IMG/VR virus record: IMGVR_UViG_3300032307_000622
Coordinates: 32,001 to 96,000 of that record
DNA: 64,000 nucleotides
Reading direction: 5' to 3' (one strand)
DNA from: a virus
Shown piece by piece: positions 1-41,065 of the stretch (positions within the stretch are counted from its first letter, which is position 1; each line of letters begins with the position of its first letter). Below the pieces are notes generated by a model. That model saw only the letters and a list, made by a program, of their open reading frames with translations. It searched no databases and was not told where the DNA came from. The translations under genes were made by a program, and so were the position numbers.

Positions 1-132
1 TCGTTCTGATGTTCCATAACGAGTGTTCCATACCTCTAGGTAAGGAATAACATCTCCTTCACGCTTAGCCTTCTTCGTCACCTTAGTTAGACGCTTTGGC
101 TGAGCCTTCTTGGCCTTTGGAAATACTGCCAC
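1..132 (-). CDS. Hypothetical basic protein, runs off the window edge (MAVFPKAKKAQPKRLTK...)
   Basis: Manual translation; GTG start at 132, AAGGAG RBS, promoter at 160-188. Confidence 0.65.
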   Translation of the reverse strand, partial: MAVFPKAKKAQPKRLTKVTKKAKREGDVIPYLEVWNTRYGTSER

Positions 133-159
133 TTTTTTCTCCTTGTTGTTTATGTATTA

Positions 160-188
160 ATTGTAGACTATTCAGTTATGTTTGTCAA
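160..188 (-). promoter_or_regulatory. Sigma70/SigA-type promoter TTGACA-N17-TACAAT
   Basis: Near-consensus hexamers with a 17-nt spacer. Confidence 0.8.
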
Positions 189-193
189 TAGCT

Positions 194-448
194 TTATCCA
201 AGCAAATCATCTAGAGTTTCAAAGCCTGTGTCTTCTATCTCCATGCCAGTTAGAAAAAGATCGAAAGTTTCATTAACAAACTTTTCAGCCATTGTACTTG
301 GCTCTACGATCCTGTTTGCCAGCATGTATGCTAGGGGCAGTCCGATATCGTTATACTCAATAAAGTCCTTAAACTCTTCGTCATCACGATAGTTGAGCCA
401 GAGGTCTCCCAGTATCTCTGTCTTACTAGTAAAAGAAGTTGTTTCCAA
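194..448 (-). CDS. Hypothetical acidic protein (probable TTG start at 448; ORF extends to 514)
   Basis: ORF track; purine-rich RBS before 448. Confidence 0.7.
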   Translation of the reverse strand: METTSFTSKTEILGDLWLNYRDDEEFKDFIEYNDIGLPLAYMLANRIVEPSTMAEKFVNETFDLFLTGMEIEDTGFETLDDLLG

Positions 449-632
449 AATCTTCTTCCTCTCTCTCATACCTTGCGGCATCAGCAATTTCCATAAATCT
501 TCTATAAGTGACATTTGGTGCTGACCTTGCTATGTATTCTCCAACTTGGTCAAGGTCTAGTGTCACATTGTTTACGAGTTTAGATAATTGCTCTGCCACC
601 TTTTCATTATCGCTTTTTGTTCGCTTTCCCAA
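426..632 (-). CDS. Hypothetical protein
   Basis: ORF track; AGGAG RBS; promoter at 654-682. Confidence 0.7.
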   Translation of the reverse strand: MGKRTKSDNEKVAEQLSKLVNNVTLDLDQVGEYIARSAPNVTYRRFMEIADAARYEREEEDFGNNFFY

Positions 633-653
633 TTATACAAATCTCCTGTGCTT

Positions 654-682
654 ATTGTACCAAAAATGGTTGGGGGTGTCAA
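654..682 (-). promoter_or_regulatory. Promoter TTGACA-N17-TACAAT with extended -10 TG
   Basis: Read directly from sequence. Confidence 0.75.
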
Positions 683-758
683 GAGTGAAAGTAGGAAATC
701 TCTCAACACCCCCTCAGTGCCCAGCTACCCAACCAGGCACCTTACTAGGGAGCTAGGC
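672..758 (-). ncRNA. Candidate two-hairpin sRNA; 3' hairpin loop AUUUCCUACUUUCA is anti-RBS
   Basis: 14-bp stem needs tandem G-U pairs that form only on the minus strand; loop complements GAAAGUAGGAAA. Confidence 0.55.
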
Positions 759-775
759 TCAACCTAATAAGATTA

Positions 776-1123
776 TTAAACTACATCTTCCCAGTACTTG
801 GGCAGTTCATCGAAATACTGCTTTAGCCTATCTGACATCTTATCCCAATACTCTAGCTTGAAGCCGTGTAGGCCATACCATGTGTCAACCTCAGTCCTGA
901 AGTATTCATCCTGGTTTAAACCCAAGGCCACAATCTCCTCACCTGTTAATCTAATAGGGTCATTGCTGTACTCTTGAGAGTTACCCTCATTATACGTGTA
1001 GACATGAATGCACCAGCTAGCAGGGTCCCAATATGACTCCCCTCCAGCATCTAGCTCCTCTGGCATATAGATGTTTAAATCATAGTCAATAAGAGTCTTA
1101 TCTCTGTTCTTGTTCCTATACAT
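776..1123 (-). CDS. Hypothetical protein (probable start 1123; ORF extends to 1186)
   Basis: ORF track; start coupled to the upstream gene. Confidence 0.7.
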   Translation of the reverse strand: MYRNKNRDKTLIDYDLNIYMPEELDAGGESYWDPASWCIHVYTYNEGNSQEYSNDPIRLTGEEIVALGLNQDEYFRTEVDTWYGLHGFKLEYWDKMSDRLKQYFDELPKYWEDVV

Positions 1124-1508
1124 ACTTTGTAACATAGCCGTAGCCCTCACATTCTTGGCAGTCTGGGTCTCCCCATTCGTTGCCACGCTTCTCTAACATT
1201 TCTTCGTCTTCACTGTAGCACTCACATTCTGTTTCTACAGATAGGATAACTTCATAGTCTGTGTCATCTTGCCACGGTACCTCGCAAACATGATAACTAA
1301 TCCTATTAACCCAAGCAATACCTGCCACTAGCAGGCTAGACATGTCTCCGTCCACCCATGTCCAAACATAGTGTGGGTCTAGGGATTTGATGTACTCCCA
1401 TTCCTCACCATAGGTTTCAAAGTTGTAATTGTTGGTGGGCACGAGGTGATTTTGCTTTGGCTTGAATTCTTCTTCAAAAGCATCCCAACCTTGGATTTCT
1501 CTAAACAT
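1116..1508 (-). CDS. Hypothetical protein with C-terminal CxC...CxxCxGxG zinc-finger-like motif
   Basis: ORF track; CECY...CQECEGYG. Confidence 0.75.
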   Translation of the reverse strand: MFREIQGWDAFEEEFKPKQNHLVPTNNYNFETYGEEWEYIKSLDPHYVWTWVDGDMSSLLVAGIAWVNRISYHVCEVPWQDDTDYEVILSVETECECYSEDEEMLEKRGNEWGDPDCQECEGYGYVTKYV

Positions 1509-1532
1509 TTCCTACTCTACTTTCTACTGGGG

Positions 1533-1763
1533 TTATTTCCTAAAGACATTATAGCCTGACATACCGACTTTGTCAACAGCAGTTCTCTGAACATCCATCC
1601 AAGCAGTCTCACCAAAGAAATACTTAGGTCGCTGCCCTTCAATAACTAACTTATAAAAGTCATAGTAGCGATCAGACTCCATAACCTGGACGGTATTGTA
1701 GTGATAGATCCTGGTCCAAGTGGTATCTTTTACACTAGGCTTTTTATCAACATAAATCTGCAT
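1533..1763 (-). CDS. Hypothetical protein
   Basis: ORF track; TAATG coupling. Confidence 0.7.
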   Translation of the reverse strand: MQIYVDKKPSVKDTTWTRIYHYNTVQVMESDRYYDFYKLVIEGQRPKYFFGETAWMDVQRTAVDKVGMSGYNVFRK

Positions 1764-1867
1764 TAGACTCTCTTTCCTTTGTATAAATCTACACCAAGAC
1801 CTTTATTGATCTTCTTGCCACACCATGTACATGCTCCATAGCTATAGTAATGCATGTGTTTACTCAT
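1763..1867 (-). CDS. Small CxxC protein (MSKHMHYYSYGACTWCGKK..., 34 aa)
   Basis: Manual translation; RBS; stop overlaps the next start. Confidence 0.6.
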   Translation of the reverse strand: MSKHMHYYSYGACTWCGKKINKGLGVDLYKGKRV

Positions 1868-2003
1868 CTACTTATCTCCTAGGGTTGAAGGGTTTGATAA
1901 TCAATTATCTCAAATTCTGCGAAAAAAGTCAAGCTGTTCGTAATTCTTTTTTATCACTAACAATATTATGTAAGTTATGCTGTCGCCCCAGAATGGGGTC
2001 CTG

Positions 2004-2213
2004 TTATAGACCCCACTCCTCTGTAAAGTTATCAAGTTCAATGTGACGAACTTTGTCATCATCTCCAGCAAGGATAGCCTCAACATAGTCAAGCCTGTCC
2101 ATAGAAGACATGTCCTCTAGATTAGACCACTGCTGTTCGTTGAGGGCATTGAAGTCAAACTCCAATACGATAGAAGAGCCGTTGTATTCACCGTCATTAG
2201 TTACCCATGCCAT
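2004..2213 (-). CDS. Hypothetical acidic protein
   Basis: ORF track; GGAGG RBS. Confidence 0.7.
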   Translation of the reverse strand: MAWVTNDGEYNGSSIVLEFDFNALNEQQWSNLEDMSSMDRLDYVEAILAGDDDKVRHIELDNFTEEWGL

Positions 2214-2386
2214 TAGTCATCCTCCTGTATTCTAATTGTCGCAAGAAGTATTCCGAGAGCCTGCCGTGCTGACATTATGTCGAGAGCAGGATTGTCTATC
2301 GCATTCTTGATTGTTCTTTCTACATAGGCAATGGTGTCAACCATACCTTGCTCGTAGCCAATCTGTTCTAGTTCTGATACAGCCAT
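2213..2386 (-). CDS. Hypothetical protein (MAVSELEQIGYEQG..., 57 aa)
   Basis: Manual translation; coupled to neighbours at both ends. Confidence 0.65.
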   Translation of the reverse strand: MAVSELEQIGYEQGMVDTIAYVERTIKNAIDNPALDIMSARQALGILLATIRIQEDD

Positions 2387-2598
2387 CAGTAGTTGTCCTC
2401 GTATTTCGGTAGTTGGTCATAGGGATAGCCAATAGCACCTAGAACATTTTCATAGGCACTGATAAGGCCATTGAAATAGTCCTTAGAACTATCGTTCATG
2501 TCTAGCATGTTGTAGTGTGGCACAAGCTCATCTAGTCTTCCCAATAGATACTTTGCCAAACCGTTCATAGTTACATAGTCTGCGTCTTTACTCAACAA
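2386..2598 (-). CDS. Hypothetical protein
   Basis: ORF track; GGAGG RBS. Confidence 0.65.
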   Translation of the reverse strand: MLSKDADYVTMNGLAKYLLGRLDELVPHYNMLDMNDSSKDYFNGLISAYENVLGAIGYPYDQLPKYEDNY

Positions 2599-2722
2599 CT
2601 GTTGCCTCCCATGCTCCGTCAGGTAGATTAGCGTGATACTCTAATGCCATGTCAATAGCCTCATCTTCATCTAAGGCTTCTACTTCATACTCGCAAGTAT
2701 AAGTAACTAGATACTTCTTCAT
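2588..2722 (-). CDS. Small acidic protein (MKKYLVTYTCEYEVEALDEDEA..., 44 aa)
   Basis: Manual translation; resembles 3209-3400 and 7584-7745. Confidence 0.65.
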   Translation of the reverse strand: MKKYLVTYTCEYEVEALDEDEAIDMALEYHANLPDGAWEATVVE

Positions 2723-2817
2723 TTTACTTTCTCCAACATCTCTGCCAACTTCTTCAGTTGCTCAGGGGTAAGGTTGTTCAATATATCTTCGTTGATTAGG
2801 TTGCTATTTGTCCACAT
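2719..2817 (-). CDS. Small, probably leaderless protein (32 aa)
   Basis: ATG 7 nt after the -10 hexamer at 2825-2830; ATGA overlap with the next gene. Confidence 0.55.
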   Translation of the reverse strand: MWTNSNLINEDILNNLTPEQLKKLAEMLEKVK

Positions 2818-2824
2818 AGAAACC

Positions 2825-2847
2825 ATTGTAGCGTTAGGGTCTGACAT
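2825..2847 (-). promoter_or_regulatory. Early promoter ATGTC-N12-TACAAT
   Basis: One of 15 equally spaced copies. Confidence 0.75.
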
Positions 2848-3234
2848 TTATTCCTCGTCTTCCTCTCCAAAGAATTGTCCAATAACAGTAACAAACTTAT
2901 CAGTCTCATCATCATTGGTAAACACAGCGTTGATGAATCTCAGGGAACAAGAATCCTCATACCAAGTAAGGACTAGGTCTTTCATCGCAGCAGGGGTATC
3001 AATAATAGTCTTATCATAACCATAGCCAATCATCTTCTCAGTCTGCTTAGCATCCATGTTTAGATAAATTTTGTGACAGCCATCAAAGGATACTGAGTCT
3101 GTTTGGTACATCAGGTCATCTAGGTTTGTTTCCTGGTTTCCCTCGCATAGATTACAGAAAGGGGTACAGTCAAAGTTGCCTTCGTGATTAGGGCATTCGA
3201 TGGTGGTATCAATCATTGTCATCATCATCTTCAT
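2848..3234 (-). CDS. Hypothetical protein with N-terminal Cys/His motif
   Basis: ORF track; CPNH...CTPFCNLC; true start probably near 3213. Confidence 0.7.
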   Translation of the reverse strand: MKMMMTMIDTTIECPNHEGNFDCTPFCNLCEGNQETNLDDLMYQTDSVSFDGCHKIYLNMDAKQTEKMIGYGYDKTIIDTPAAMKDLVLTWYEDSCSLRFINAVFTNDDETDKFVTVIGQFFGEEDEE

Positions 3235-3400
3235 CCTCCTCTAGCTCCTCAACATCAATGTCATAGACACCATCATAGGTAATGTCGTTGTCCATAGAAT
3301 CTCCCCAACTAGTCCAAGCTAGCTGTTCGGCTGCCTCTGCTGATTCTGCTTCTAGCTCACCAGCAAAGTCAATACGCATCTTCACATAGTATTTGGGCAT
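3209..3400 (-). CDS. Small acidic protein
   Basis: ORF track; AGAAAGTAG RBS. Confidence 0.7.
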   Translation of the reverse strand: MPKYYVKMRIDFAGELEAESAEAAEQLAWTSWGDSMDNDITYDGVYDIDVEELEEDEDDDDND

Positions 3401-3426
3401 TTATCTACTTTCTTTAGGGTAGGTCT

Positions 3427-3449
3427 ATTATGACATGACCCTCAGACAT
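3427..3449 (-). promoter_or_regulatory. Early promoter ATGTC-N12-CATAAT
   Basis: Motif copy. Confidence 0.7.
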
Positions 3450-3553
3450 TTTGTAGTTTCTGGGAAAAAAGTTATGCGGTCGTAATTATTTTTTTATCTT
3501 AATCTATATGATTATTGAAAACCTGGGCGGCTCAATTTCGATCCATGAATGGA

Positions 3554-3580
3554 GGGCAGTTTATACTCATGCCCAGGAGT
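3554..3580 (-). ncRNA. Compact H-type pseudoknot, copy 1 (ACUC CU GGGCA U GAGU AUAAAC UGCCC)
   Basis: Covarying stems across 4 copies. Confidence 0.65.
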
Positions 3581-3585
3581 GTTGC

Positions 3586-4590
3586 TTAGTTAGCTAAAAC
3601 CAACTGAAGCAGTCTGTTCTTTTCAGCAGTTGTCACTGGGTCAAAACCAGAAGCAGCTGCTAGGATAGATTCGTTAGAACCACCACGAGCAGAGCGGTAC
3701 CAGTCTAGTCTTTCAGTTAGAGCGTTGAAAGCTCCCCACTTAGTTCCAGCGATTGTGTTGTTATACTCACCAACATAGATTGCGTTGATTAGGTCAATCT
3801 TATCGTTGTGCTTTTTGAATGAGCCCTTAGAGTCTTTTTCTGGGGCAGGGTAAGCGAGTTCAACAATCTTGTCAAACTGTGCCTTGGTGATTTCAGTTTC
3901 AATCATAGCCTTAGCCATCTCATCAAACTTATCCATGTAAGCGTTAGCCAAACCAAGAGCCTCTCTAGCTTGCTGAACTTTGCCAGAAGCTGTTGCGGTG
4001 TGTCTAATCTTGAATGACTGCTTGACACTTCCACCTCTGCCACGATTACCAAGAGCAAGGTTTAGAGTGTTAGCACATACAACACGAACTGGTGTGATAC
4101 TAGCTTGAATGGCAACAGAACCATCATGGCTAGTGTTGATTAGAAGATAAGTGTTTACCTTATCAGACACGCCGTTAGGGTCTAGGATAGTCTCACGCTC
4201 AAGAGCAAGAGAACCAAAAACCTGTCTGCCACCCTTGATAGAGCCAGCAGTCTCCCAACGACCTCCGCCATCTAGCATCAGGTCTCCGAAATCAAACAAG
4301 TCTTCATTCTGAAGCGGAACATAACGCTCACCAACTACGCCAAGAACATCATTTTGTTCTGAGTTGAATGGGTTAGTTCTAGTTACGAATGAGTAACCCT
4401 TGTCTGAAGCAAAACCATCAGGAATTGCTACATCTTCCAAGCGAACATTCCAGTTAGACAAGTGTGCCAAGTCTAGCATCTCTGCTGTGGTTACTTCCTT
4501 GTCAAAGACTGTGCCTAGCCCATGCCAAGCTGGCTGGCGAAGGGAAGCAAAAGCGGTCTGTCCGTTTACGGTCTCTAGCTCATGTGCCAT
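3586..4590 (-). CDS. DUF932/DUF945 family phage/plasmid protein
   Basis: MAHELE...AWHGLG N-terminus, Y..LQNE, WETAGS..GG, SHDGS, TPVRVVCANTL motifs. Confidence 0.9.
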   Translation of the reverse strand: MAHELETVNGQTAFASLRQPAWHGLGTVFDKEVTTAEMLDLAHLSNWNVRLEDVAIPDGFASDKGYSFVTRTNPFNSEQNDVLGVVGERYVPLQNEDLFDFGDLMLDGGGRWETAGSIKGGRQVFGSLALERETILDPNGVSDKVNTYLLINTSHDGSVAIQASITPVRVVCANTLNLALGNRGRGGSVKQSFKIRHTATASGKVQQAREALGLANAYMDKFDEMAKAMIETEITKAQFDKIVELAYPAPEKDSKGSFKKHNDKIDLINAIYVGEYNNTIAGTKWGAFNALTERLDWYRSARGGSNESILAAASGFDPVTTAEKNRLLQLVLAN

Positions 4591-4628
4591 GTTTTTCTAC
4601 TTTCTGTTAGGGGATTTCTAATAATCTA

Positions 4629-4657
4629 ATTATAGGGTTACCCTCCGACATTGTCAA
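4629..4657 (-). promoter_or_regulatory. Perfect TTGACA-N17-TATAAT promoter containing the ATGTC box
   Basis: Read directly from sequence. Confidence 0.9.
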
Positions 4658-4781
4658 GGATTCAGGGCAAAATAATTAATCTTCGTAAATAACAGTTTGG
4701 TAACAAAATGGGGGCCGCCCAAATCCACCCACTCAGTATTTGTGATCACGAGATCTTCAGCTTTTGTGTGGGTGGCTGGGT

Positions 4782-4808
4782 GAGCAGTTTAGCGACATAC
4801 TCAGGTCG
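4782..4808 (-). ncRNA. Compact H-type pseudoknot, copy 2
   Basis: CGAC CU GAGUA U GUCG CUAAAC UGCUC; U-G wobble fixes the strand. Confidence 0.65.
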
Positions 4809-4817
4809 TTTGTCTGT

Positions 4818-5264
4818 TTAGATAAGTTCCATTACAGACGAGTAAGATGAAGCAGAAACTTCCTCTTGCGTAGTCATACGAAGCACCTTGAGATTACGCT
4901 CTAGGATTTCCTTACGAGTTGAGTGTTCCCTACCAAACCACTCACGCTGGTTAGGCTTGCTTGGCTCAGTTGGCTTCTCTCCCAACCCAATTAGTTCTGG
5001 GTCTAGGACAAGTTCCAGCCTACCATTGTAGTTGGTTGAGATACGAATAACGCTATCGTAGTCATAACCAATCTTGGCAGAGTTGTTCTTGAGATACTCA
5101 GAAACAGCACTAGCAACCTTCTTCTTGTATTCCTCAGTTGCCAACTCATACTGCTTACGCTCATCTGCGTAGTTTGCTACTGCCTCGTCAATCTTCGCAA
5201 TAGACTTCTCAATGTCTGCGATTAGAACGGATACAGGGATTTTTACGGACATAGTTCTAGCCAT
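4818..5264 (-). CDS. Hypothetical coiled-coil protein
   Basis: ORF track; AGAAAGTAG RBS; own promoter. Confidence 0.8.
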   Translation of the reverse strand: MARTMSVKIPVSVLIADIEKSIAKIDEAVANYADERKQYELATEEYKKKVASAVSEYLKNNSAKIGYDYDSVIRISTNYNGRLELVLDPELIGLGEKPTEPSKPNQREWFGREHSTRKEILERNLKVLRMTTQEEVSASSYSSVMELI

Positions 5265-5296
5265 AATTTATTTCTACTTTCTTTCAGGGTAATTAC

Positions 5297-5319
5297 ATTA
5301 TACATAGGGGGTAGGACAT
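5297..5319 (-). promoter_or_regulatory. Early promoter ATGTC-N12-TATAAT
   Basis: Motif copy. Confidence 0.8.
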
Positions 5320-5334
5320 TTATTTAGTTGTGGT

Positions 5335-5363
5335 GAGCAGTTTATCTTGACTTGCTCAGGTCA
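5335..5363 (-). ncRNA. Compact H-type pseudoknot, copy 3
   Basis: UGAC CU GAGCA A GUCA AGAUAAAC UGCUC. Confidence 0.65.
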
Positions 5364-5373
5364 GAGGAGGTGA

Positions 5374-5520
5374 TTACTTTACAGTAGTCCAGCGAGGCTG
5401 TCCGTTTACATCAAGGCGAACACGAGCAGAGCCACTAGGGTTCTTTACGATTTCCTTGATAGTTCCAACGACACCAGACTTAGCGGTGGTGAACTGTGAG
5501 CCAACAGTTAGATTTACCAT
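5374..5520 (-). CDS. Small basic beta-rich protein (MVNLTVGSQFTTAKSGVVG..., 48 aa)
   Basis: Manual translation; AAGGAAG RBS; own promoter. Confidence 0.75.
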   Translation of the reverse strand: MVNLTVGSQFTTAKSGVVGTIKEIVKNPSGSARVRLDVNGQPRWTTVK

Positions 5521-5584
5521 TTTGCTTCCTTTTCCGCCCCAGAGGGACTGTTTTGATTTATTACCAACCTTTGTTGATAGGTCT

Positions 5585-5613
5585 ATTGTAGCCTAACCCT
5601 CCGACATTATCAA
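5585..5613 (-). promoter_or_regulatory. Early promoter TTGATA-ATGTC-N12-TACAAT
   Basis: Motif copy. Confidence 0.8.
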
Positions 5614-5688
5614 GCATTGTTTTATAACATTTCTGGGGAAAATTGTTATACTTCGTAACTTGACAAAATGTTGATCTTGGGGCGACAC

Positions 5689-5718
5689 AAAACCCCCAGG
5701 ATGTCAAGTCCCAGGGGT
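5689..5718 (-). terminator. Intrinsic terminator after the 5726 gene
   Basis: CCCCUGGGA/UCCUGGGGG stem followed by UUUU. Confidence 0.6.
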
Positions 5719-5725
5719 AGTGTGT

Positions 5726-6274
5726 TTAGACTGCTTGTTCTTCTTTGAGGTACGAGTATACTCCGCACTTTGCTCTCTCACAATAGTCCTCATTAGTTAT
5801 CTCACGGACCTCTTGGAAAGTCAGAGTCAAAGTATTGTCTCCGTAGGTTGTAGCAAAGGTTTGGTTATCAAGATTTATGATGTAGATACCCTCACAGAAT
5901 AAATCATCATTCTTGAACTCTGGGTCTAGCACTAGCGGCACAGGGTCAGTAGCGTTGACAATTACCTCAAGAATACCAGCACCAGTATCTCTAGTTAGGC
6001 TAGGATAGTCCTTACTAAACCTCTCGCCATCTTCCAGACTTCCCATACCATCTTCTCTAAAGTAGTTGGCATAGATTTTCTTTAGCTCCTCATCACTTGC
6101 CTGATAGGTCAGGTGTAGGTCAAAGTTTTTCTCTAGCTTTTCGATGTTCGTTGGCTTAGACAAAAAGTTTACAATAGTGATACCCTGCCCACTTGGATAG
6201 TGGTCCCATTGACCATACTGGGCTACTACTGTCTTTCCGTTGTAAATTACCTCTGTAATTCCTCTAGTTCCCAT
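5726..6274 (-). CDS. Conserved phage hypothetical protein (MGTRG...QYGQWDHYPSGQG)
   Basis: ORF track; ATG at 6274 after GAAAGTAGG RBS. Confidence 0.8.
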   Translation of the reverse strand: MGTRGITEVIYNGKTVVAQYGQWDHYPSGQGITIVNFLSKPTNIEKLEKNFDLHLTYQASDEELKKIYANYFREDGMGSLEDGERFSKDYPSLTRDTGAGILEVIVNATDPVPLVLDPEFKNDDLFCEGIYIINLDNQTFATTYGDNTLTLTFQEVREITNEDYCERAKCGVYSYLKEEQAV

Positions 6275-6302
6275 TTTCCTACTTTCTTTTGTTGGTGAGA
6301 TT

Positions 6303-6325
6303 ATTATACATTGGGGGTCAGACAT
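6303..6325 (-). promoter_or_regulatory. Early promoter ATGTC-N12-TATAAT
   Basis: Motif copy. Confidence 0.8.
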
Positions 6326-6380
6326 TTAGGTTCTTAATTCGTAACTGTTATAAAGCTGTGATCTGGGCCGCCCTAAAGGT

Positions 6381-6463
6381 GGCCAGTTTTTCGTCATGGC
6401 CAGGACGTGGTCCACATGTTAGAAAGGATAAGAAGTGTGGACCATCTTGCCCCTATGCAAGAT
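6381..6463 (-). ncRNA. Candidate sRNA: short hairpin, anti-RBS hairpin (loop CUUCUUAUCCUUUCUAACA) and pseudoknot copy 4 (6381-6407)
   Basis: Perfect 7-bp and 9-bp stems abutting CGUC CU GGCCA U GACG AAAAAC UGGCC. Confidence 0.6.
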
Positions 6464-6535
6464 CTATTTTCTGGAATATACAAATATGAGACATGCTATT
6501 CCTAGGAAGTACAGAGCCCAGTGATACAGCTCCAT
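6464..6535 (-). CDS. 23-aa single-TM peptide MELYHWALYFLGIACLIFVYSRK
   Basis: TAATG coupling to the upstream gene; hydrophobic. Confidence 0.5.
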   Translation of the reverse strand: MELYHWALYFLGIACLIFVYSRK

Positions 6536-7254
6536 TACTTTTTACTCGCACTAAACAATATGTCATTGCGAGCAAATACGCATTGTCCGCAGGTAACGCA
6601 GGCGGAACCCTTGTCGCTAATTAGCGGAAGTTTCTTAGCATTCTCAGGGCACGGTATTGCAGACTTGACGGTGATAGACAACATCCGCTCTTTACCGCTA
6701 GCAAAATTGTTAGCAAGATATGCAAGCTTTACGCCACTATCTTTCTTTAGCTTTTCTGCCAGCTGCCAGTTGTCATCATCAGTTGAGAAGTATAGTGCAA
6801 GGTTGTCAACATCGCTAAGAATTGGAACAGCAAAATCTGACCTCGTGTATACCCAGAATTGAATTTGGGGGAATGCCTTGATTACATTCTTCCAGGCCTT
6901 AGTATAGTCTTCACTAAAGAAGTCACCATCCCAGTGAATTCGAAACAGCTTTTCTGCATTACGCTTGTCACAATCTTTCTCAAACTCTTGAATCATTTGA
7001 TAAATTAGAATTTCCATTTCCAATTCATCTGCATTACGTAGCAGGTCCCAATTGTTTATGAGAACAGCTTTTACGCCCTTGTAGACTTTTTCGAGCTTGC
7101 CTGCATAACAGACTTTCTCGCATACACTTGTTGCTCCAGGGCAGGAATAAGCTTTCCCTGAAGGAAGGCCAAAAGTGTTCGCAATAGTTGGCGTTTTACC
7201 ATTTGGAGAGACTGCATTAGTTACCTTTCGGTCTTTAGAACGGATTAGGGGCAT
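6535..7254 (-). CDS. Gp88-family protein (radical-SAM-like Cys motif)
   Basis: CPGATSVCEKVCYA, FRIHWDGDFF, WVYTRS, CP...CVTCGQC; start 7254 after GAAAGGA. Confidence 0.8.
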   Translation of the reverse strand: MPLIRSKDRKVTNAVSPNGKTPTIANTFGLPSGKAYSCPGATSVCEKVCYAGKLEKVYKGVKAVLINNWDLLRNADELEMEILIYQMIQEFEKDCDKRNAEKLFRIHWDGDFFSEDYTKAWKNVIKAFPQIQFWVYTRSDFAVPILSDVDNLALYFSTDDDNWQLAEKLKKDSGVKLAYLANNFASGKERMLSITVKSAIPCPENAKKLPLISDKGSACVTCGQCVFARNDILFSASKK

Positions 7255-7276
7255 TAGGGGTCCTTTCAACAGTTAT

Positions 7277-7299
7277 ACTATAGCAGGGGGTACCGACAT
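7277..7299 (-). promoter_or_regulatory. Early promoter ATGTC-N12-TATAGT
   Basis: Motif copy. Confidence 0.75.
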
Positions 7300-7584
7300 C
7301 TATAGCTCTTCGTAGTATACCCAACCATCTAAGTGGTGAGCCTCTATGATAGCGTGAACAGGGGCAGCGGTAAGTCCTCTATAGCCAATACCCTCAGGAA
7401 GTCCAACTAACTTATCAAACTCACCCTCATTAGCTAAGTCAATAGCCTGAATACAAACAGGTACCATAGACTTAGGTACAGGGGGGAAGTGATTAGAAGT
7501 TAGGTGCCACTCAATAGCTTGCTCTAGTGTAATTGAACCAATCTCAGCTAGCTCTCTAAATTCTGTTGCGTGTAGTGAACCCAT
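7300..7584 (-). CDS. Hypothetical protein (HLTSNHFPPVP...HHLD)
   Basis: ORF track; ATG 7584 coupled to the upstream gene. Confidence 0.75.
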   Translation of the reverse strand: MGSLHATEFRELAEIGSITLEQAIEWHLTSNHFPPVPKSMVPVCIQAIDLANEGEFDKLVGLPEGIGYRGLTAAPVHAIIEAHHLDGWVYYEEL

Positions 7585-7745
7585 TACTCTACCTCTTCCG
7601 CTTCGGCAACATACCATTCACCCTCATCACCATCATTGATAAGGTTAGACTTACTTAGATACTTGTTAGCCTTTTCATAGGCCTCTTCTTCATTTTTAGC
7701 ATTGACAATAATGAATCCGTCATAAGCAACAGAATACTTTCCCAT
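7584..7745 (-). CDS. Small acidic protein (MGKYSVAYDGFIIVNAKNEEEA..., 53 aa)
   Basis: Manual translation; AGAAAGG RBS. Confidence 0.7.
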   Translation of the reverse strand: MGKYSVAYDGFIIVNAKNEEEAYEKANKYLSKSNLINDGDEGEWYVAEAEEVE

Positions 7746-7783
7746 TACTTTACCTTTCTTGTTGAGGGGTGTTGAACTCTAAT

Positions 7784-7812
7784 AGCATAGCACCTACCAC
7801 AGACATTGTCAA
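7784..7812 (-). promoter_or_regulatory. Early promoter TTGACA-ATGTC-N12-TATGCT
   Basis: Motif copy. Confidence 0.8.
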
Positions 7813-7865
7813 GCAGGTGGCCGTACAAGTTTTCTGGTCTAATTAGTCTTTGGCAGTCTGTACAG

Positions 7866-8018
7866 TTATAGGTTTTCTTTGATAGCATTTCGTCTATTTT
7901 CACTTCTTGTGCCTTTCTTTGGCTTAGGGGTTATTACAGTGTGCTTAGACTTTAGCATAGAGTGAAACAACGCTTGACTCTCAGCCTTGCGTCTTGCTTC
8001 ATTTCTTTTTCCTAACAT
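7866..8018 (-). CDS. Small basic leaderless protein (50 aa)
   Basis: Manual translation; ATG 6 nt after the -10. Confidence 0.65.
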   Translation of the reverse strand: MLGKRNEARRKAESQALFHSMLKSKHTVITPKPKKGTRSENRRNAIKENL

Positions 8019-8024
8019 ACTAAA

Positions 8025-8047
8025 ATCTTAGCATAACCCTCTGACAT
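8025..8047 (-). promoter_or_regulatory. Early promoter ATGTC-N12-TAAGAT
   Basis: Motif copy. Confidence 0.75.
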
Positions 8048-8164
8048 TTTGGGAAAATTCCTGGGGCATTTTTAATAGACTACGTAAAGTTATTTCTAGA
8101 TCAGAATTGGGGCGGCACAACCAACGGACATTGTCAAGTGCGACACGCCGTAGTTGTGAAAGTT

Positions 8165-8272
8165 TTAGAACGGTGGTTGGTTTTTGCGGTATCCAATTCC
8201 GTGAGCAATCACATACACAACCGCAATTAGAATTAGGTCAATCATTAGGTTGAATCCGTTGTAAAAAATCAT
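8165..8272 (-). CDS. Small single-TM protein (35 aa)
   Basis: Manual translation; GAGG RBS. Confidence 0.6.
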   Translation of the reverse strand: MIFYNGFNLMIDLILIAVVYVIAHGIGYRKNQPPF

Positions 8273-8389
8273 TTAGTTTTCCTCTCTTGTTGTGAATAGG
8301 CTACCAACACCCTCAGACATTTTATCTTCTGAGAGCATTAGGTCAATTTGGAAAATTAGGGTTTCTAGTTCTTCTACTGATAGGCTCAC
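8273..8389 (-). CDS. Small hypothetical protein (38 aa)
   Basis: GTGA overlap; GAGGGG RBS. Confidence 0.45.
   Translation of the reverse strand: MSLSVEELETLIFQIDLMLSEDKMSEGVGSLFTTREEN
8298..8320 (-). promoter_or_regulatory. Early promoter ATGTC-N12-TAGCCT
   Basis: Motif copy. Confidence 0.65.
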
Positions 8390-8556
8390 TTGTCCCCCTC
8401 CCACTCTAGGATTAGTTCTGCGATACGCTTGGCATCTTCTAGTGGCACATTAGGCATTAGGTATCCAACCATTCTCGCATAAGGGTATTGAGCCTTAGTC
8501 TTTAGAACTGCTAGGGCTGAGTCTAGTAGTTCGTGTGATTCTCTGTTGTAAGCCAT
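8386..8556 (-). CDS. Hypothetical protein (MAYNRESHELL..., 56 aa)
   Basis: Manual translation; AGAAAGGA RBS. Confidence 0.7.
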   Translation of the reverse strand: MAYNRESHELLDSALAVLKTKAQYPYARMVGYLMPNVPLEDAKRIAELILEWEGDK

Positions 8557-8582
8557 TTATTTTCCTTTCTTCTGATACTTAG

Positions 8583-8605
8583 AATCTAGCATAGGGGTAT
8601 GACAT
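8583..8605 (-). promoter_or_regulatory. Early promoter ATGTC-N12-TAGATT
   Basis: Motif copy. Confidence 0.7.
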
Positions 8606-8606
8606 T

Positions 8607-8756
8607 TTAGACTAGTTCCAGATACTCTTCTGGAAAATCTTCGCCAAGATAACTCCTGGCATCATCTAGGGGCATTAGTCCCTTGTAGTCATTACACTCG
8701 TGGCAAACATAGTCATTGACTAGGTTCATACAAAACACACAAATTGTTTCAGTCAT
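8607..8756 (-). CDS. Small zinc-finger-like protein (CVFC...CHEC, 49 aa)
   Basis: Manual translation; GAAAGGA RBS. Confidence 0.7.
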   Translation of the reverse strand: MTETICVFCMNLVNDYVCHECNDYKGLMPLDDARSYLGEDFPEEYLELV

Positions 8757-8760
8757 TTAT

Positions 8761-8946
8761 TTAGTTTCCTTTCGTTGATAGTTCTAACTTAGCATAACCC
8801 TCAGACATTTTCTTGGGCAACACGCTGTAGTGATAGGGCAGGTGGTTTGCGTCCCACTGCTTGCGGTCTAGGTAGTAGCTAGTGCTTGTTTCTTGGACAT
8901 AGCCACAGCCTTTACATTCAGTTTTACGCCACATTCTTCTACTCAT
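8761..8946 (-). CDS. Small CxxC protein
   Basis: ORF track; AAGGA RBS. Confidence 0.6.
   Translation of the reverse strand: MSRRMWRKTECKGCGYVQETSTSYYLDRKQWDANHLPYHYSVLPKKMSEGYAKLELSTKGN
8786..8808 (-). promoter_or_regulatory. Early promoter ATGTC-N12-TAAGTT
   Basis: Motif copy. Confidence 0.7.
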
Positions 8947-8971
8947 TTATTCCTTCTTTCTAACTACTAAA

Positions 8972-8994
8972 AACCTATCACGACCCTACGACAT
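8972..8994 (-). promoter_or_regulatory. Early promoter ATGTC-N12-TAGGTT
   Basis: Motif copy. Confidence 0.7.
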
Positions 8995-9150
8995 TTTGGG
9001 GACATTTAGGGGTGTGTCGTGATACTTGTTATCATTTTGTTATAATTCTGGGGGGTCTAGATCTAGTGTCTTAAATTGATCTGGGTACTAAATGTGGGCG
9101 GCACACAAAAGCGGATCTGTCAAGCAGACACGCCGTAGATTTAGAATTTT

Positions 9151-9261
9151 CTAGTGAATCTCACCATACTCATTCCAGCATGACTCACAGCCATACTCAT
9201 CTTCTTCTACTACGAAGACTTTCTCTACTACTACATCGCATAATTCACAAACTGAAAACAT
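9151..9261 (-). CDS. Small zinc-finger-like protein (CELC...CESC, 36 aa)
   Basis: Manual translation; AGAAAGGATAA RBS. Confidence 0.7.
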   Translation of the reverse strand: MFSVCELCDVVVEKVFVVEEDEYGCESCWNEYGEIH

Positions 9262-9371
9262 TTGTTATCCTTTCTTTTATTTATCTTTATTTATCTTTAT
9301 ACTTATACTCTACTCCCTATTGTCCCTTTGTCAAGTTGACACGCCGTTATTTTTATAACTTTTTGGTAACA

Positions 9372-9488
9372 CTACCTGCTAGTGCTTTCGCAGTAGAGGC
9401 ATCCACCATTTACAGTTTCTGGAACTGTTGAGTGGAAGTCACAGACATAAGGCCTGCCTGTGGTTTCTATCTTTTGAATCTTTATCAT
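9372..9488 (-). CDS. Small CxxH/CxxC protein (38 aa)
   Basis: Manual translation; AGAAAGGATAA RBS. Confidence 0.65.
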   Translation of the reverse strand: MIKIQKIETTGRPYVCDFHSTVPETVNGGCLYCESTSR

Positions 9489-9512
9489 TTTTTATCCTTT
9501 CTTTATACTATT

Positions 9513-9535
9513 ACTCTATAAAGGGGGTCTGACAT
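9513..9535 (-). promoter_or_regulatory. Early promoter ATGTC-N12-TAGAGT
   Basis: Motif copy. Confidence 0.7.
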
Positions 9536-9630
9536 TTTGGGGGATTTTTAGGGGTGTTTTATAGAATGTTACTATTTTGTTATAAACGTCGCCACCTTTC
9601 GGTGGGAATGTCAAATCGACACGCCGTGTT

Positions 9631-9804
9631 TTAGAAATTTTCTTTGTATAGCAAGTGAGTGATCACAGCAAACAAAGAAGCTACAACAACAAAGCCAGTG
9701 CCCAAGACCAGGCCATACATTATGAATCCATTGAGTGGAAAAAACCACATTGAAAAAATTGCGGTAAGTATTGAAGCAATTGTTAGAGTTAGGGTTGTTC
9801 TCAT
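9631..9804 (-). CDS. Small two-TM membrane protein (57 aa)
   Basis: Manual translation; AAAGGATAA RBS. Confidence 0.65.
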   Translation of the reverse strand: MRTTLTLTIASILTAIFSMWFFPLNGFIMYGLVLGTGFVVVASLFAVITHLLYKENF

Positions 9805-9895
9805 TAGTTATCCTTTGCTAGTTCTGTTTCTAATACTACAATAGAGGCAATAGCCTTGTCAAATTCTTCCCAAGTGTCAAAAGTTAGAGTTATCA

Positions 9896-10087
9896 TTACC
9901 AAGCCCTTCTAGTTCCAAGTGCCTTAGCAACCTTGATTAGTCCGTTGATTTCGTTGATTAGTTCCCAACTAGGGTCATCAGAGATAGACATTAGCAAGTC
10001 AATCTCATCTTCTACAGCCTGTAGATTTAGGAGATTTACCTTAGCGTATCTAGTTAGGCTATCTGTTGGGGTTGTGTATCTTTTCAT
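9896..10087 (-). CDS. Hypothetical protein
   Basis: ORF track; AGAAAGGATAA RBS. Confidence 0.7.
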   Translation of the reverse strand: MKRYTTPTDSLTRYAKVNLLNLQAVEDEIDLLMSISDDPSWELINEINGLIKVAKALGTRRAW

Positions 10088-10107
10088 TGTTTATCCTTTC
10101 TATCTAG

Positions 10108-10130
10108 ATACTAGCATAAACCACCGACAT
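10108..10130 (-). promoter_or_regulatory. Early promoter ATGTC-N12-TAGTAT
   Basis: Motif copy. Confidence 0.75.
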
Positions 10131-10131
10131 T

Positions 10132-10260
10132 TTAGTCAGTGATTTTCACAATCTCAAAACCCATTTTCTTTAGGTTCTGAACCTGTGTTTCTAGAGTGTT
10201 TGGCATAGCACCAAACCAAATCATTGAGGAACCAACTTTGTTTACAAAAATCTTTTTCAT
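10132..10260 (-). CDS. Small hypothetical protein (42 aa)
   Basis: Manual translation; AGAAAGGATA RBS. Confidence 0.65.
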   Translation of the reverse strand: MKKIFVNKVGSSMIWFGAMPNTLETQVQNLKKMGFEIVKITD

Positions 10261-10513
10261 TTTGTATCCTTTCTATTTATCTAATTTATCTTTATATATA
10301 TATCTAAACATACTATTAGTGAAAAGTCAAGTATCAAAACATACAAACTTTAGCGTGTCGTTTTGTAGGGTTCAAACAAAAGTTATTAACAGAGTTATTA
10401 ACAGGTGGCACTAGTGTGTGCTCACTAAGTTTTTTGTTGTGTTTGTTGTAAAATCTGCATCATACATCTCTACAAAATATTCAGATTTTGCAAAATATAA
10501 AATTTTTCAGATT

Positions 10514-11149
10514 TTACACTGTGGTGGGGTATTTTTTAAAATACTTCTCTAGCTCTGCATCTTGCAGGATTTGCATATTTTGGTAATGAGAAGGTAGCAG
10601 GTATTCTGATCCATCTATTGACATCTGACAAACCAGGATGTCTAAATAATCATTTTCAGAAAAATTGGTTGGTGGTCTCCAATGCATTTGGTGAGATCCA
10701 GAAAAGACTAAAGCTTCATTAGATGCGAGGGTATCACATGTATCATATGCACATAGCTCCCAATCCAAAGTACTATCCAATTGAATAGATAAAGTAATAG
10801 ATGGCTTCTTTAGCTGATTGTCGCTATGTGGTCTTAGCTCTGGCTGATGTCCAGTTTTAGTTGTATATCTAGCAAAATGTACTTGTGCGGTCTTAAGAGA
10901 TAGTCCTGTAACATCTTCTGTAAAATCTCTTATTGTTAAAAGAAAGTTATTGTCAAAACCTTTAATATATGCAAAATATCCTAGCTCTGGAACATTTAGA
11001 TATTCTAGACCTTCTCTATTATCTGGCGGTAGATCAGGAGCTAGCTCCTCTGGGAAAGCATTCTTGACGCATTCATACACATAGGCATAATCCTCCTGAG
11101 ATAAAACATCCTTGACAACAAAAGGCTTAAATTCTGTTAAGTTCGTCAT
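10514..11149 (-). CDS. 2OG-Fe(II) oxygenase-family protein
   Basis: FARY...LRPHSD...HWRP (HxD...H triad). Confidence 0.75.
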   Translation of the reverse strand: MTNLTEFKPFVVKDVLSQEDYAYVYECVKNAFPEELAPDLPPDNREGLEYLNVPELGYFAYIKGFDNNFLLTIRDFTEDVTGLSLKTAQVHFARYTTKTGHQPELRPHSDNQLKKPSITLSIQLDSTLDWELCAYDTCDTLASNEALVFSGSHQMHWRPPTNFSENDYLDILVCQMSIDGSEYLLPSHYQNMQILQDAELEKYFKKYPTTV

Positions 11150-11765
11150 TTAGGCTTCTTTCCAGTAAGTGCTTATACTTCTCGATAAACTGTCCTGATA
11201 TCTTATCCATTTCGTCAAAGTAGCTATCCTCCAAGACGGTATCATCGTCATCTTCAATATATGTCTGCAAGATAATCACATCAAAGTAATCATCGTCTTT
11301 AAATTCTATGTCTGGTCTCCAGTGTACATCCTTAGATCCAGAGAAAAGCAATATCTGGTTCTTTTCTAGATTATATTTCTCGTCGTTCACATAGATATCC
11401 CAATCTAGTGTTGTATCTAGTTCTATAGTAGCTGTTAGGGATGGTCTCTTTACCGCCCTATCTACGTGCGGTCTTAAACGTGGACGATATCCAGAATCTC
11501 TTGTGTACCGTGCAAATAGGACACCTGGCAAAGCTACTGTGGCATGGAGGATATCTTCAAGCTTTTCTCTAATTGTTTCAACGACATCATCCTTAACTAC
11601 GTCAAAGTAAATAATAAAGCCGTTGTTGTCGATAACAGCAAAACCATCGTCATACTTGCCAAGATCATTTTTTAAGTTGTTTTCGATCTTTTCATGTACG
11701 GCCTCATATACCAAATCATAATGTTCTTTAGTTAAAAAATCTGAGGCTACAATAGTTTTTTCCAT
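11127..11765 (-). CDS. 2OG-Fe(II) oxygenase-family protein, paralog of 10514
   Basis: FARY...LRPHVD...HWRP; probable leaderless ATG at 11765. Confidence 0.75.
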   Translation of the reverse strand: MEKTIVASDFLTKEHYDLVYEAVHEKIENNLKNDLGKYDDGFAVIDNNGFIIYFDVVKDDVVETIREKLEDILHATVALPGVLFARYTRDSGYRPRLRPHVDRAVKRPSLTATIELDTTLDWDIYVNDEKYNLEKNQILLFSGSKDVHWRPDIEFKDDDYFDVIILQTYIEDDDDTVLEDSYFDEMDKISGQFIEKYKHLLERSLNDELNRI

Positions 11766-11787
11766 AGATATATGATACACTATAGTT

Positions 11788-11838
11788 ATGTGTAATGGCA
11801 ATTGTACTTGTGGCAAAGAGCAGCCACAGCCAAAGTAA
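11788..11838 (+). CDS. Possible 16-aa Cys-rich peptide MCNGNCTCGKEQPQPK
   Basis: TGaTACACT 6 nt before the ATG; fills the intergenic gap. Confidence 0.4.
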   Translation: MCNGNCTCGKEQPQPK

Positions 11839-12033
11839 TTATCGGATTATAGTATATTCTTTTAGCAGGTCGTAAAGCTCTCCGTTTACACGGTTTAGCT
11901 CAGGCTGCATCTCTTCTATTGCCTTGTCGATCTTTTCAGCCGAACCACCAATATTCAGCATTGCTTCACGATTCATCTTGTTAATGTAATCTGTCATTAA
12001 CGCTACAACTTCATCTCTAAACATTTCTACCAT
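11839..12033 (-). CDS. Hypothetical protein
   Basis: ORF track; GGAG RBS before 12033. Confidence 0.65.
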   Translation of the reverse strand: MVEMFRDEVVALMTDYINKMNREAMLNIGGSAEKIDKAIEEMQPELNRVNGELYDLLKEYTIIR

Positions 12034-12224
12034 TTCTCCAAAGGGCATTTAGCCTGTCTTAAAGTGGATTTCAATTTCATAAAACATCCACACTTTTTGC
12101 ATTTCGTAAGACGCTTGTCCAGCCATGGACATTGGTTACAAATTGCAAGTCTCTGTTCGATAAGTTCTCTATCGCTCCTAGGTTGGCTAGGATCAAATAG
12201 ATCAAAAAACTTCACATCGCCCAT
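12027..12224 (-). CDS. Small Cys-rich protein (DUF6171-like; RLAICxxC...CKKCGCFM..K...CP.xKW)
   Basis: Motif; paralog of 21530; leaderless promoter. Confidence 0.8.
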   Translation of the reverse strand: MGDVKFFDLFDPSQPRSDRELIEQRLAICNQCPWLDKRLTKCKKCGCFMKLKSTLRQAKCPLEKW

Positions 12225-12381
12225 CTATAAATGATACCACACATAGGCTACATGTTGCATATATGTTTATGCATATTGGGTAGATAGGGTGTATGGGATC
12301 TCTTATTCCGCCGAGCTACATCCGCCGAATTTAATTTCTATTTTTACGCCGAACTAAAAAATCAGTTATAATTGTTATATT

Positions 12382-12699
12382 ATGACCCCCATCGAAATAA
12401 CTAACATGATACTGGGAATTGTAATTTCCGTAGGAACCATAATCTCAATTGCCGCCCTGGGAATCAGATGGCTAGTCAAGCATTATTTTGATGAAATTAA
12501 AGCAGAGCTAAAACCTAATAGTGGATCAAGTATAAAAGATCAGGTTACTAGACTAGAAAAACAAATGGTAGAGTCTCAGGAACAGCGAAAAGAAGCTAAC
12601 AAAAAAATAGATCACATGTACGATCTGCTTATTGAATATATCGCAAAAAGCTCAGAGCCAAAAAACTCAGCAAGAAAAACTACAAAAAAATCAAGCTAA
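12382..12699 (+). CDS. Membrane protein with TM segment and coiled coil (possible holin or lysis accessory)
   Basis: N-terminal TM; ELKPNSGSSIKDQVTRLE motif. Confidence 0.65.
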   Translation: MTPIEITNMILGIVISVGTIISIAALGIRWLVKHYFDEIKAELKPNSGSSIKDQVTRLEKQMVESQEQRKEANKKIDHMYDLLIEYIAKSSEPKNSARKTTKKSS

Positions 12700-12897
12700 A
12701 AGCCGATTATTATATTATAATATAAAAACTAAATCGTAAATTTAATATTTAAGATATCTTATATATAGATATATATTATACTCGAATATCAGCTTTGTCA
12801 AGTCATTTTTTGATAACAATTGTGTAAATTTTTTGTTACATTTTGATAAACTGTGAAAACATACATATAATAAGAAACTTTATGTTATAATTTATAC

Positions 12898-12950
12898 AAC
12901 TAGTGTTCAGGGAAGTCTCTCATACCCACGTCCTTGAACACTAGTTTTAT
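12898..12950 (+). ncRNA. Candidate ~50-nt single-hairpin sRNA with loop AGUCUCUCAUACCCACG
   Basis: TGtTATAAT 6 nt upstream, 16-bp stem with a G-U pair on +, U-tract after. Confidence 0.65.
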
Positions 12951-12977
12951 TATTTTTACTGGTATAATTAGAGTATT

Positions 12978-13361: not shown

Positions 13362-13552
13362 TGCCAACAGTTAAAATTGTGCCTTTCCCAGGCGGACCTG
13401 GCCCACGTGGCGAACAGGGACCAAGGGGGTACCAGGGAGATCCTGGGCCAACCTATACTCCAACAGGAGCTTCAGGAACTTTTGTTTCAAATGATAACAA
13501 AACGATAACAGTTGTTAATGGAATTATTACAGCAATCACAGAGGGAGATTAA
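13361..13552 (+). CDS. Small collagen-repeat protein
   Basis: GPGPRGEQGPRGYQGDPGP. Confidence 0.7.
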   Translation: MPTVKIVPFPGGPGPRGEQGPRGYQGDPGPTYTPTGASGTFVSNDNKTITVVNGIITAITEGD

Positions 13553-13553
13553 T

Positions 13554-39626: not shown

Positions 39627-39689
39627 TTTGTTAATAACTTATTCACATAGTTATTAACATGTTATAAAAGGAGGTATAATTAAACTACC

Positions 39690-41042: not shown

Positions 41043-41065
41043 AAATCACTTAGGAGGTGACAATT

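Follow-up and report, generated by a model that had tools for sequence, protein, structure and literature searches.

Three hairpins in the DNA of an uncultured phage carry loops complementary to ribosome-binding sites (RBSs) of the phage's own genes. They lie in a stretch of 64,000 nt (the window), bases 32001-96000 of the 116,302-bp IMG/VR virus record IMGVR_UViG_3300032307_000622, a record with direct terminal repeats. Comparison with relatives indicates that all three hairpins (here hp1, hp2, and hp3) are real, conserved, strand-specific RNA structures, found with compensatory changes in their stems in dozens of related contigs, and argues that the loop sequence itself is under selection. 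The reading that we tentatively favor, at a probability of about 0.45, is that the loops act as antisense "anti-RBS" seeds for a subset of the phage's own genes; antisense control of initiation is the simplest function that would make use of an exposed loop of 14-23 nt complementary to start regions. Pairing between loop and RBS would compete with the 30S subunit, so that translation would be lowered or timed, and the duplex might also create RNase III sites. By this mechanism hp1 and hp2 would act either in cis, within the long transcripts that contain them, or in trans, in the form of stable 3' fragments.

The hairpins and the sequences that they may address are the following:

6408-6444, minus strand: hp1 ("hairpin B"); by folding, a 9-bp stem (6436-6444/6408-6416) with an open loop of 19 nt (6417-6435)
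672-713, minus strand: hp2; a 14-bp stem (700-713/672-685) with a 14-nt loop (686-699)
12883-12958, plus strand: hp3; an extended -10 (12883-12891), a 16-bp stem (12898-12913/12931-12946), a C-rich loop of 17 nt (12914-12930), and a U tract
9266-9273, 9493-9500, 9809-9816, 10092-10099, and 10265-10272, minus strand: class-1 RBS words, from the motif count
1517-1524, 3405-3412, 4597-4604, 5274-5281, and 6279-6286, minus strand: class-2 RBS words, in leaders behind ATGTC-box/TATAAT promoters
63000-63017, plus strand: putative hp3 target; start region of the gene (63006; 63 aa) that comes first after promoter 62906

RBS words and the hairpins that match them

The first-pass annotation of this DNA had divided early genes into two RBS classes, each with a matching hairpin, and a motif count over the whole genome bears out the five class-1 and five class-2 words at the starts that it named. 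The class-1 word, AAAGGATA, has 11 copies on the two strands together: five stand 4-6 nt ahead of the ATGs at 9261, 9488, 9804, 10087, and 10260, a sixth precedes a start at window position -1278, and another is the hp1 loop read on the plus strand. The class-2 word, GAAAGTAG, differs from the class-1 (canonical) word at one position. Five of its eight copies in the genome precede the ATGs at 1508, 3400, 4590, 5264, and 6274, and one is the hp2 loop read on the plus strand. The hp1 loop contains the complement of the class-1 RBS; of the five sites, that of 10087 is matched over 12 nt, that of 9804 over 9 nt, and the other three (9261, 9488, and 10260) over 11 nt each. The hp2 loop, with the change that matches the altered position, contains the complement of the class-2 RBS, and its complementarity covers 12 nt at 6274, 10 nt at 1508, and 8 nt at 3400, 4590, and 5264. 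Both loops are open in the folds, with matches of up to 12 nt, and, as had been claimed, each of the two hairpins lies downstream of its matching block on the same strand. Two related statements have to be corrected: the class-1 genes are not the five rightmost of the early region, for four more minus-strand open reading frames (ORFs) lie at 10514-12224, and class 2, though present at the five genes named, is not a zone-wide RBS, being used by only five of the approximately 13 genes in 1116-6325, the remainder of which have GGAGG- or AAAGGA-type sites.

Relatives were gathered with the 239-aa protein encoded at 6535-7254, which yielded 108 related IMG/VR stretches, 80 of which (58-90% identity) were kept as loci, numbered with the prefix L; whole-genome scans covered G000 and G003 only. 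Since the relatives are not independent samples, counts of co-occurrence across them are not probabilities. Loop conservation had been named beforehand as a point on which the proposal could fail, and the loops proved to be kept while the stems around them change.

hp1 is located in the 3' tail of the predicted mRNA of the 239-aa gene and a 23-aa ORF, between a small hairpin (hairpin A) and a pseudoknot. It has no U tract, and no conserved promoter separates it from the upstream gene. By synteny, not by loop motif, it was found behind the orthologous gene in 15 of the 16 loci L002-L017, with stems that vary by subclade around a constant loop core. Among 29 unique instances the 5' arm comes in 23 different sequences, 16 instances contain G-U pairs on the gene strand, and the mean stem is 8.9 bp, compared with 5.8 bp in shuffled flanks. 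The 12-nt loop motif of hp1 also occurs on an unrelated, G-rich stem behind the orthologue of a 48-aa gene (L002, L004, L006, and L013-L017). This second hairpin sits just ahead of an ATGTC-box promoter; at the equivalent place in the window, behind the 48-aa gene (5374-5520), a pseudoknot is preceded by a pyrimidine-rich string.

The stem of hp2 has two G-U pairs, present on the minus strand only, and a 116-nt stretch around it folds to -53.7 kcal/mol (z -5.5) on the minus strand versus -37.8 kcal/mol (z -2.4) on the plus strand. The hairpin is kept in 19 aligned relatives (82% paired, compared with 48-63% in slid alignments), with many G-U pairs on the gene strand. Its 14-bp stem is GC-rich, as in an intrinsic terminator, but the run of five Us begins 6 nt after it; hp2 ends the unit that starts at the class-2 promoter 1576, with no conserved promoter between hp2 and the upstream gene. 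Its 3' arm includes the -35 TTGACA of the next promoter, which is kept together with hp2 in relatives. This architecture is preserved far out: a G-rich 5' arm, a 3' arm with the -35 TTGAC, and then a -10 and a canonical Shine-Dalgarno (SD) sequence. Loop type differs by clade: the window's own clade and L028-L035 have the class-2 complement, L019 and L024 a plain anti-SD loop, and distant phages, which have no GAAAGTAG RBSs, a short G-rich one. A clade-specific loop on a conserved architecture suggests that hp2 is the hairpin of a terminator/promoter junction and that some clades have recruited its loop. Two more stable hairpins stand ahead of hp2, at 714-775 on the minus strand of the window.

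Among the three hairpins, only hp3 looks like a self-contained small RNA (sRNA) gene, with a promoter and a terminator of its own. Its fold has a z of -6.5, and in 27 aligned homologues 91.5% of positions are paired and 13 of 14 pairs change on both sides (0 of 500 shuffles). The homologues share one design (extended -10, stem of 14-16 bp, C-rich loop, U tract), and the promoter TGnTATAAT, 6 nt before the stem, is conserved in all 27. The 16-bp stem is followed directly by a U-rich tail, as in an intrinsic terminator; a simple terminator scan lists none of the three hairpins because it allows loops of only 3-8 nt. Given its strong promoter at the divergent control region, the hp3 RNA is probably made early rather than late.

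Predicted pairing of the loops with start regions

Pyrimidine-rich loops pair easily with purine-rich RBSs, so that a single genome proves little and the case rests on relatives. In L012-L017 the hp1 loop is longer, the extension complements the leader just upstream of the SD in several early genes, and 16-18 bp can form between the loop and the start regions of several early genes. The top hp1 sites in the whole locus are, in these relatives, the start regions of four to six early genes upstream of the hairpin, among them the start of the gene immediately before it. With the start of the orthologue of the 239-aa gene the L012-L017 loops reach -17.7 to -25.7 kcal/mol, a value attained by none of 300 shuffles; the same pairing gives -10.7 to -12.0 kcal/mol in the window, L002, and L003 (2-3 of 300 shuffles as good), and in L005 22 of 300 shuffles are as good. 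Class-1 RBSs are four of the seven best hp1 sites in the window, and in G003, the second whole genome, 10 of the 16 non-self sites of at least 9 nt fall at early start regions. The hp2 loop matches a start region approximately 820-870 nt upstream in the window, L003, L015, L016, and L017, and GAAAGTAG RBSs number one to seven per locus in the window's clade and mostly zero elsewhere.

The first-pass annotation had matched the third hairpin (12898-12946) to the replication block. The hairpin itself is on the plus strand among structural genes, and the block begins some 50 kb away, at 63006. The hp3 loop pairs with 63000-63017 over 15 bp with a 2-nt bulge (-21.6 kcal/mol), and the start site of the first replication-block gene was its best complement within a 120-nt region in 10 of the 10 genomes compared. 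Loop class and the start region of this gene change together between two clades: the means are 8.3 and 6.6 nt for matched classes and 5.2-5.4 nt for crossed ones, and matching changes in the flank of the target are found in L030 (12 nt) and L047 (10 nt). Other complements of hp3, as a possible alternative target, lie over the start codon of a 267-aa gene (10 nt; genome 2245-2254, window -29755) and over a start codon at G003:52292 (12 nt).

Several results weigh against an antisense role or against a strict barcode. Of 500 shuffles of each loop, compared with 1530 candidate start regions, 17 for hp1 (P 0.034), 20 for hp2 (0.04), and 92 for hp3 (0.18) gave a longest contiguous match at least equal to the real one, so that loop-RBS matches within the genome are only modestly beyond chance for hp1 and hp2, and those of hp3 are not significant. 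The number of start regions with a match of at least 9 nt was ordinary (98, 289, and 192 of 500 shuffles for hp1, hp2, and hp3), and enrichment by duplex energy in one genome was not significant for hp1 or hp3. No clear diagonal emerges when 14 hp1 loops are set against the start regions of 14 loci; as all these phages build their RBSs on one purine-rich design, any loop that copied the anti-SD would match. L008 and L011 have no start-region match of at least 10 nt to their own hp1 loops, and their hp1 pairing with the upstream gene is at shuffle level (146 and 152 of 300), which rules out cis-only targeting of the 239-aa gene as a general rule. In L028-L035 the hp2 loop is kept, yet zero or one GAAAGTAG RBS is found near a start within 16.7 kb, and the orthologues of the class-2 genes use other RBSs. 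The longest hp3 match in G003 (12 nt) is at the start of another gene, with 7 nt at the replication-block gene. All five class-2 genes are the first gene after an ATGTC-box/TATAAT promoter; the RBS zones coincide with shared promoter-leader cassettes, and common descent could account for their uniformity. The hp1 region has a better minimum free energy (MFE; nested) on the plus strand than on the minus strand (-43.3 versus -36.4 kcal/mol). Finally, hp1 and hp2 are 3' parts of predicted mRNAs without a promoter of their own, which leaves the "later-made sRNAs" of the first-pass annotation unsupported. Its expectation that loop and RBS would co-vary is answered in part: co-variation is seen for the hp3 classes and for hp1 in L012-L017, but it is patchy, with no diagonal in the matrix and failures in L008/L011 and L028-L035.

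Neighboring elements and genome setting

The elements that adjoin the minus-strand hairpins are:

654-682, minus strand: promoter overlapping hp2; TTGACA, a 17-nt spacer, and TACAAT with an upstream TG (11/12 matches)
6445-6463, minus strand: hairpin A, directly 5' of hp1; a 7-bp stem and a G-rich loop
6380-6407, minus strand: H-type pseudoknot, directly 3' of hp1; helix S1 6404-6407/6392-6395, helix S2 6397-6402/6380-6385
6366-6384, minus strand: terminal hairpin or GC box, which shares bases with pseudoknot S2 (overlap by eye)
Approximately 3554-3580, 4781-4808, and 5333-5366, minus strand: further pseudoknot copies without hp1, after the stop codons 3586, 4818, and 5374 (by eye)

In the pseudoknot alignment, 95.2% of cells are paired (13-42% in slid controls), six of ten pairs change on both sides, and none of 500 shuffles is as good. 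Helix 1 is 97.4% paired with three of four pairs compensatory and helix 2 is 93.7% paired with three of six, so that two interleaved helices, as in an H-type pseudoknot, both have covariation support, which takes in G-U pairs. A pseudoknot model in nhmmer gave four matches in the first 16 kb of the window, only one of them beside hp1. A survey anchored on the pseudoknot alone, which removes the bias of searching by loop motif, gave 223 matches to this element of approximately 28 nt in 75 of 81 related sequences, or 192 unique contexts. An adjacent hairpin of at least 7 bp is present in 64 of these and absent from 128; the anti-SD core is found in 28 of the 64, all in L002-L035 plus L048. In distant clades (L036, L050, L058, L059, L065, and L071) the hairpin beside the pseudoknot has another recurring loop, AAUGUAAUGCAGA-like and not anti-RBS.

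Hairpin A has a constant loop in L002-L017 and a stem that varies between subclades; the minus-strand MFE structure pairs this stretch in another way. The idea that it pairs with the run of Cs separating SD from ATG was dropped, since by eye this gives 6 bp in the window but 4 bp in L014. The MFE structure also forms the terminal hairpin instead of pseudoknot S2, and the pseudoknot, whose 3' strand overlaps this next hairpin by eye, may switch with a terminator-like fold according to translation of the upstream ORF. On the plus strand, 6366-6384 and 6444-6463 are each a hairpin with a T run after it, which a terminator scan flags as terminator-like; these could stop antisense transcription. 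The 23-codon ORF (6464-6535, minus strand) has a hydrophobic product and a one-base overlap with the stop of the 239-aa gene, and similar small ORFs occur in L002-L004 and L013-L016 (all by eye). A small ORF on the opposite strand, running from the hp1 loop, was also seen by eye and was discarded when its start and frame proved absent from L002 and L012.

Approximately 17 promoter-like sites are present on the minus strand at 2275-10130, to which block they are restricted; they have a TAnnnT -10, often preceded by TG, and, in the spacer 12 nt ahead of this -10, a conserved ATGTC box. The ATGTC box might be the site of a phage activator, by analogy with the MotA box. Four early promoters (8132-9626, minus strand) have a perfect TTGACA with an CGGCGTGTC element 3-4 nt ahead of it; the element occurs in L031-L035 as well.

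Positions 1-12224 of the window form a leftward, minus-strand block of mostly small genes without assigned function. Structural genes follow on the plus strand from 12382; those for portal, protease, and capsid occupy 37998-42208. Identity of the portal to those of Streptomyces phages, among them Jay2Jay, which is filed under Stanwilliamsviridae, does not exceed 48%, and megablast of window 1-10400 against named phages gave no match at the DNA level. The phages carrying the hairpins are a clade of uncultured phages of approximately 100-117 kb, distantly related to the Streptomyces Stanwilliamsviridae. In 14.6 kb of the cultured relative Jay2Jay, orthologues of the flanking genes are present; the same 14.6 kb yielded no pseudoknot (best nhmmer E 0.68, a partial match) and no comparable hairpin with an anti-RBS loop. 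A cmscan search of window 1-14000 on both strands with Rfam 15 models, including C4, sar, and 6C, gave no match at E up to 1. A tRNA scan of the window found none; outside it, at genome position approximately 3289, lies a tRNA-like T-arm sequence, and tRNA genes are probably present there.

Competing readings and known systems

The alternative that survives best, although we consider it unlikely, is that the elements are structural only: hp2 and hp3 would be terminators, and hp1 with the pseudoknot a 3'-end stabilizer, a processing site, or a termination-control module, with loops kept for, e.g., protein binding and RBS complementarity a by-product of base composition or of descent from inverted leader DNA. 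This would fit the similar duplex energies and numbers of matches of at least 9 nt obtained with shuffled loops, the cross-clade matrix without a diagonal, and the hp2-type junction hairpins that work with short G-rich loops in distant relatives. It would also fit the absence of an adjacent hairpin of at least 7 bp from three of the four window pseudoknots and 128 of the 192 contexts overall, and the different conserved loop beside the pseudoknot in distant clades. It is harder to reconcile with one loop motif kept on three unrelated stem architectures, with the 16-18 bp of complementarity in L012-L017, far above low-complexity chance (0 of 300 shuffles), or with loops of 14-23 nt, open in the folds, which are unusual for plain terminators.

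A more far-reaching form of the anti-RBS reading appears doubtful to us: translational control by RNA only and coded by address, in which groups of genes would have private SD variants or extensions, including a variant that mismatches the ribosome's tail at a single position, the 3'-terminal hairpins of the phage messages and one dedicated sRNA would present the exactly matching private anti-SDs in their loops, and finished transcripts would feed back on, or time, whole classes without any protein repressor.

The strict cascade of the first-pass annotation, in which the RBS serves as a barcode and three loop-display sRNAs, made later, shut off the classes of earlier genes one after another, is improbable. 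In its favor, the RBS words do fall in zones with hairpins downstream of the matching blocks, the best-ranked hp1 targets in the window and in L012-L017 include several start regions of early genes upstream, and the class-2 word is one position off the class-1 (canonical) word with the change matched in the hp2 loop. The order of events fits poorly, however: hp1 and hp2, without their own promoters, would be co-transcribed with genes of the block that they match (e.g., hp2 from promoter 1576), and hp3, with its consensus-like extended -10 in the divergent control region, is probably early although the gene proposed as its target belongs to replication. Only 5 of the approximately 13 genes in the class-2 zone have the class-2 word, and co-occurrence of loop and RBS fails in L028-L035 and in L008/L011.

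It is also quite improbable that the loops mimic the ribosomal RNA (rRNA) tail. They would then copy the 3' tail of the host 16S rRNA, as a decoy for a tail-recognizing host toxin or RNase that cuts the anti-SD, or as a sponge that binds SD sequences generally, those of host mRNAs included, and so shuts off the host. The invariant core of hp1 exactly complements the SD consensus of the phage early genes and so would equal the anti-SD tail of the host, as judged from the phage's own RBSs. Removal of the 16S anti-SD by a MazF toxin of mycobacteria has been reported (PMC12274833), and an unchanging target would fit the missing clade-specific co-variation. Against mimicry, the hp2 loop, like the class-2 RBSs, is off the plain anti-SD at one position, the loop extension of L012-L017 matches phage leaders and not a tail, and hp3 has a different loop sequence. 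Least credible of all is a role at the DNA level, as a cruciform or single-strand signal for replication, packaging, or a hairpin-dependent polymerase: hp2 does overlap a promoter and the hp1 region folds well on both strands, but hp2, hp3, and 16 of the 29 hp1 instances have G-U pairs that the other strand could not form, and these, the G-U pairs within the pseudoknot covariation, and the strong strand asymmetry of hp2 folding all argue for RNA.

If the anti-RBS reading is true, the phage addresses its own gene sets by RBS variants and matching RNA loops, and three new RNA families join the catalogue together with a widespread pseudoknot of the 3' untranslated region (UTR). Short, modular, and sequence-addressable, the elements would be attractive natural examples of orthogonal translation control. 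Should the loops prove incidental, an uncultured, actinophage-like lineage would still have yielded three conserved RNA structures with good support. A search of a limited library of papers found no account of RBS-class-matched hairpins in actinophages or of such a cascade, and no paper on such elements in this phage lineage.

Most of what is known about post-transcriptional control in lytic phages concerns proteins, such as RegA and RegB of T4; the rest comes from a few antisense RNAs of temperate phages. RegB and RegA carry out an RBS-directed shut-off of an early message class; early shut-off directed by the RBS is what is proposed here too, although the proposed agent is RNA and those of T4 are proteins.

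Four further systems invite comparison. In Escherichia coli, loops of the terminator hairpins of Hfq-dependent sRNAs take part in gene regulation (PMC11979758); the geometry is that proposed for hp2 and hp3, and the relevance is by analogy only. The cuckoo (CcsR) sRNAs of Alphaproteobacteria are bacterial RNAs of two to four adjacent hairpins whose loops all contain CCUCCUCCC (PMC4615179). They too display a fixed, pyrimidine-rich, anti-SD-like loop motif on variable stems. The phage elements fall outside that family as so described: hp1, hp2, and hp3 are each a single hairpin, the loops of hp1 and hp2 have other motifs, and the contexts are three, in a phage. The c4 antisense RNA of phages P1 and P7, according to a review, blocks translation through loops whose complement lies around the RBS of a phage gene (PMC12197685). 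Here likewise phage RNA loops are complementary to the RBS region of phage genes encoded elsewhere; c4 serves temperate-phage immunity with one target, whereas our phage has three unrelated elements and RBS classes of several genes. The remaining case is the icaR mRNA of Staphylococcus aureus, in which an anti-SD motif in the 3' UTR pairs with the SD region, blocks initiation, and makes a substrate for RNase III (PMC3868564). hp1 resembles it in being located in a 3' tail and, in L012-L017, in pairing best with starts in the same leftward block, including that of the gene just upstream. It departs from the icaR arrangement in that its motif is presented by the loop of a hairpin next to a pseudoknot, matches several genes, and belongs to a lytic-type phage known from sequence alone. 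Were the anti-RBS reading correct, anti-SD control from the 3' UTR, as in icaR, would extend to viral gene programs.

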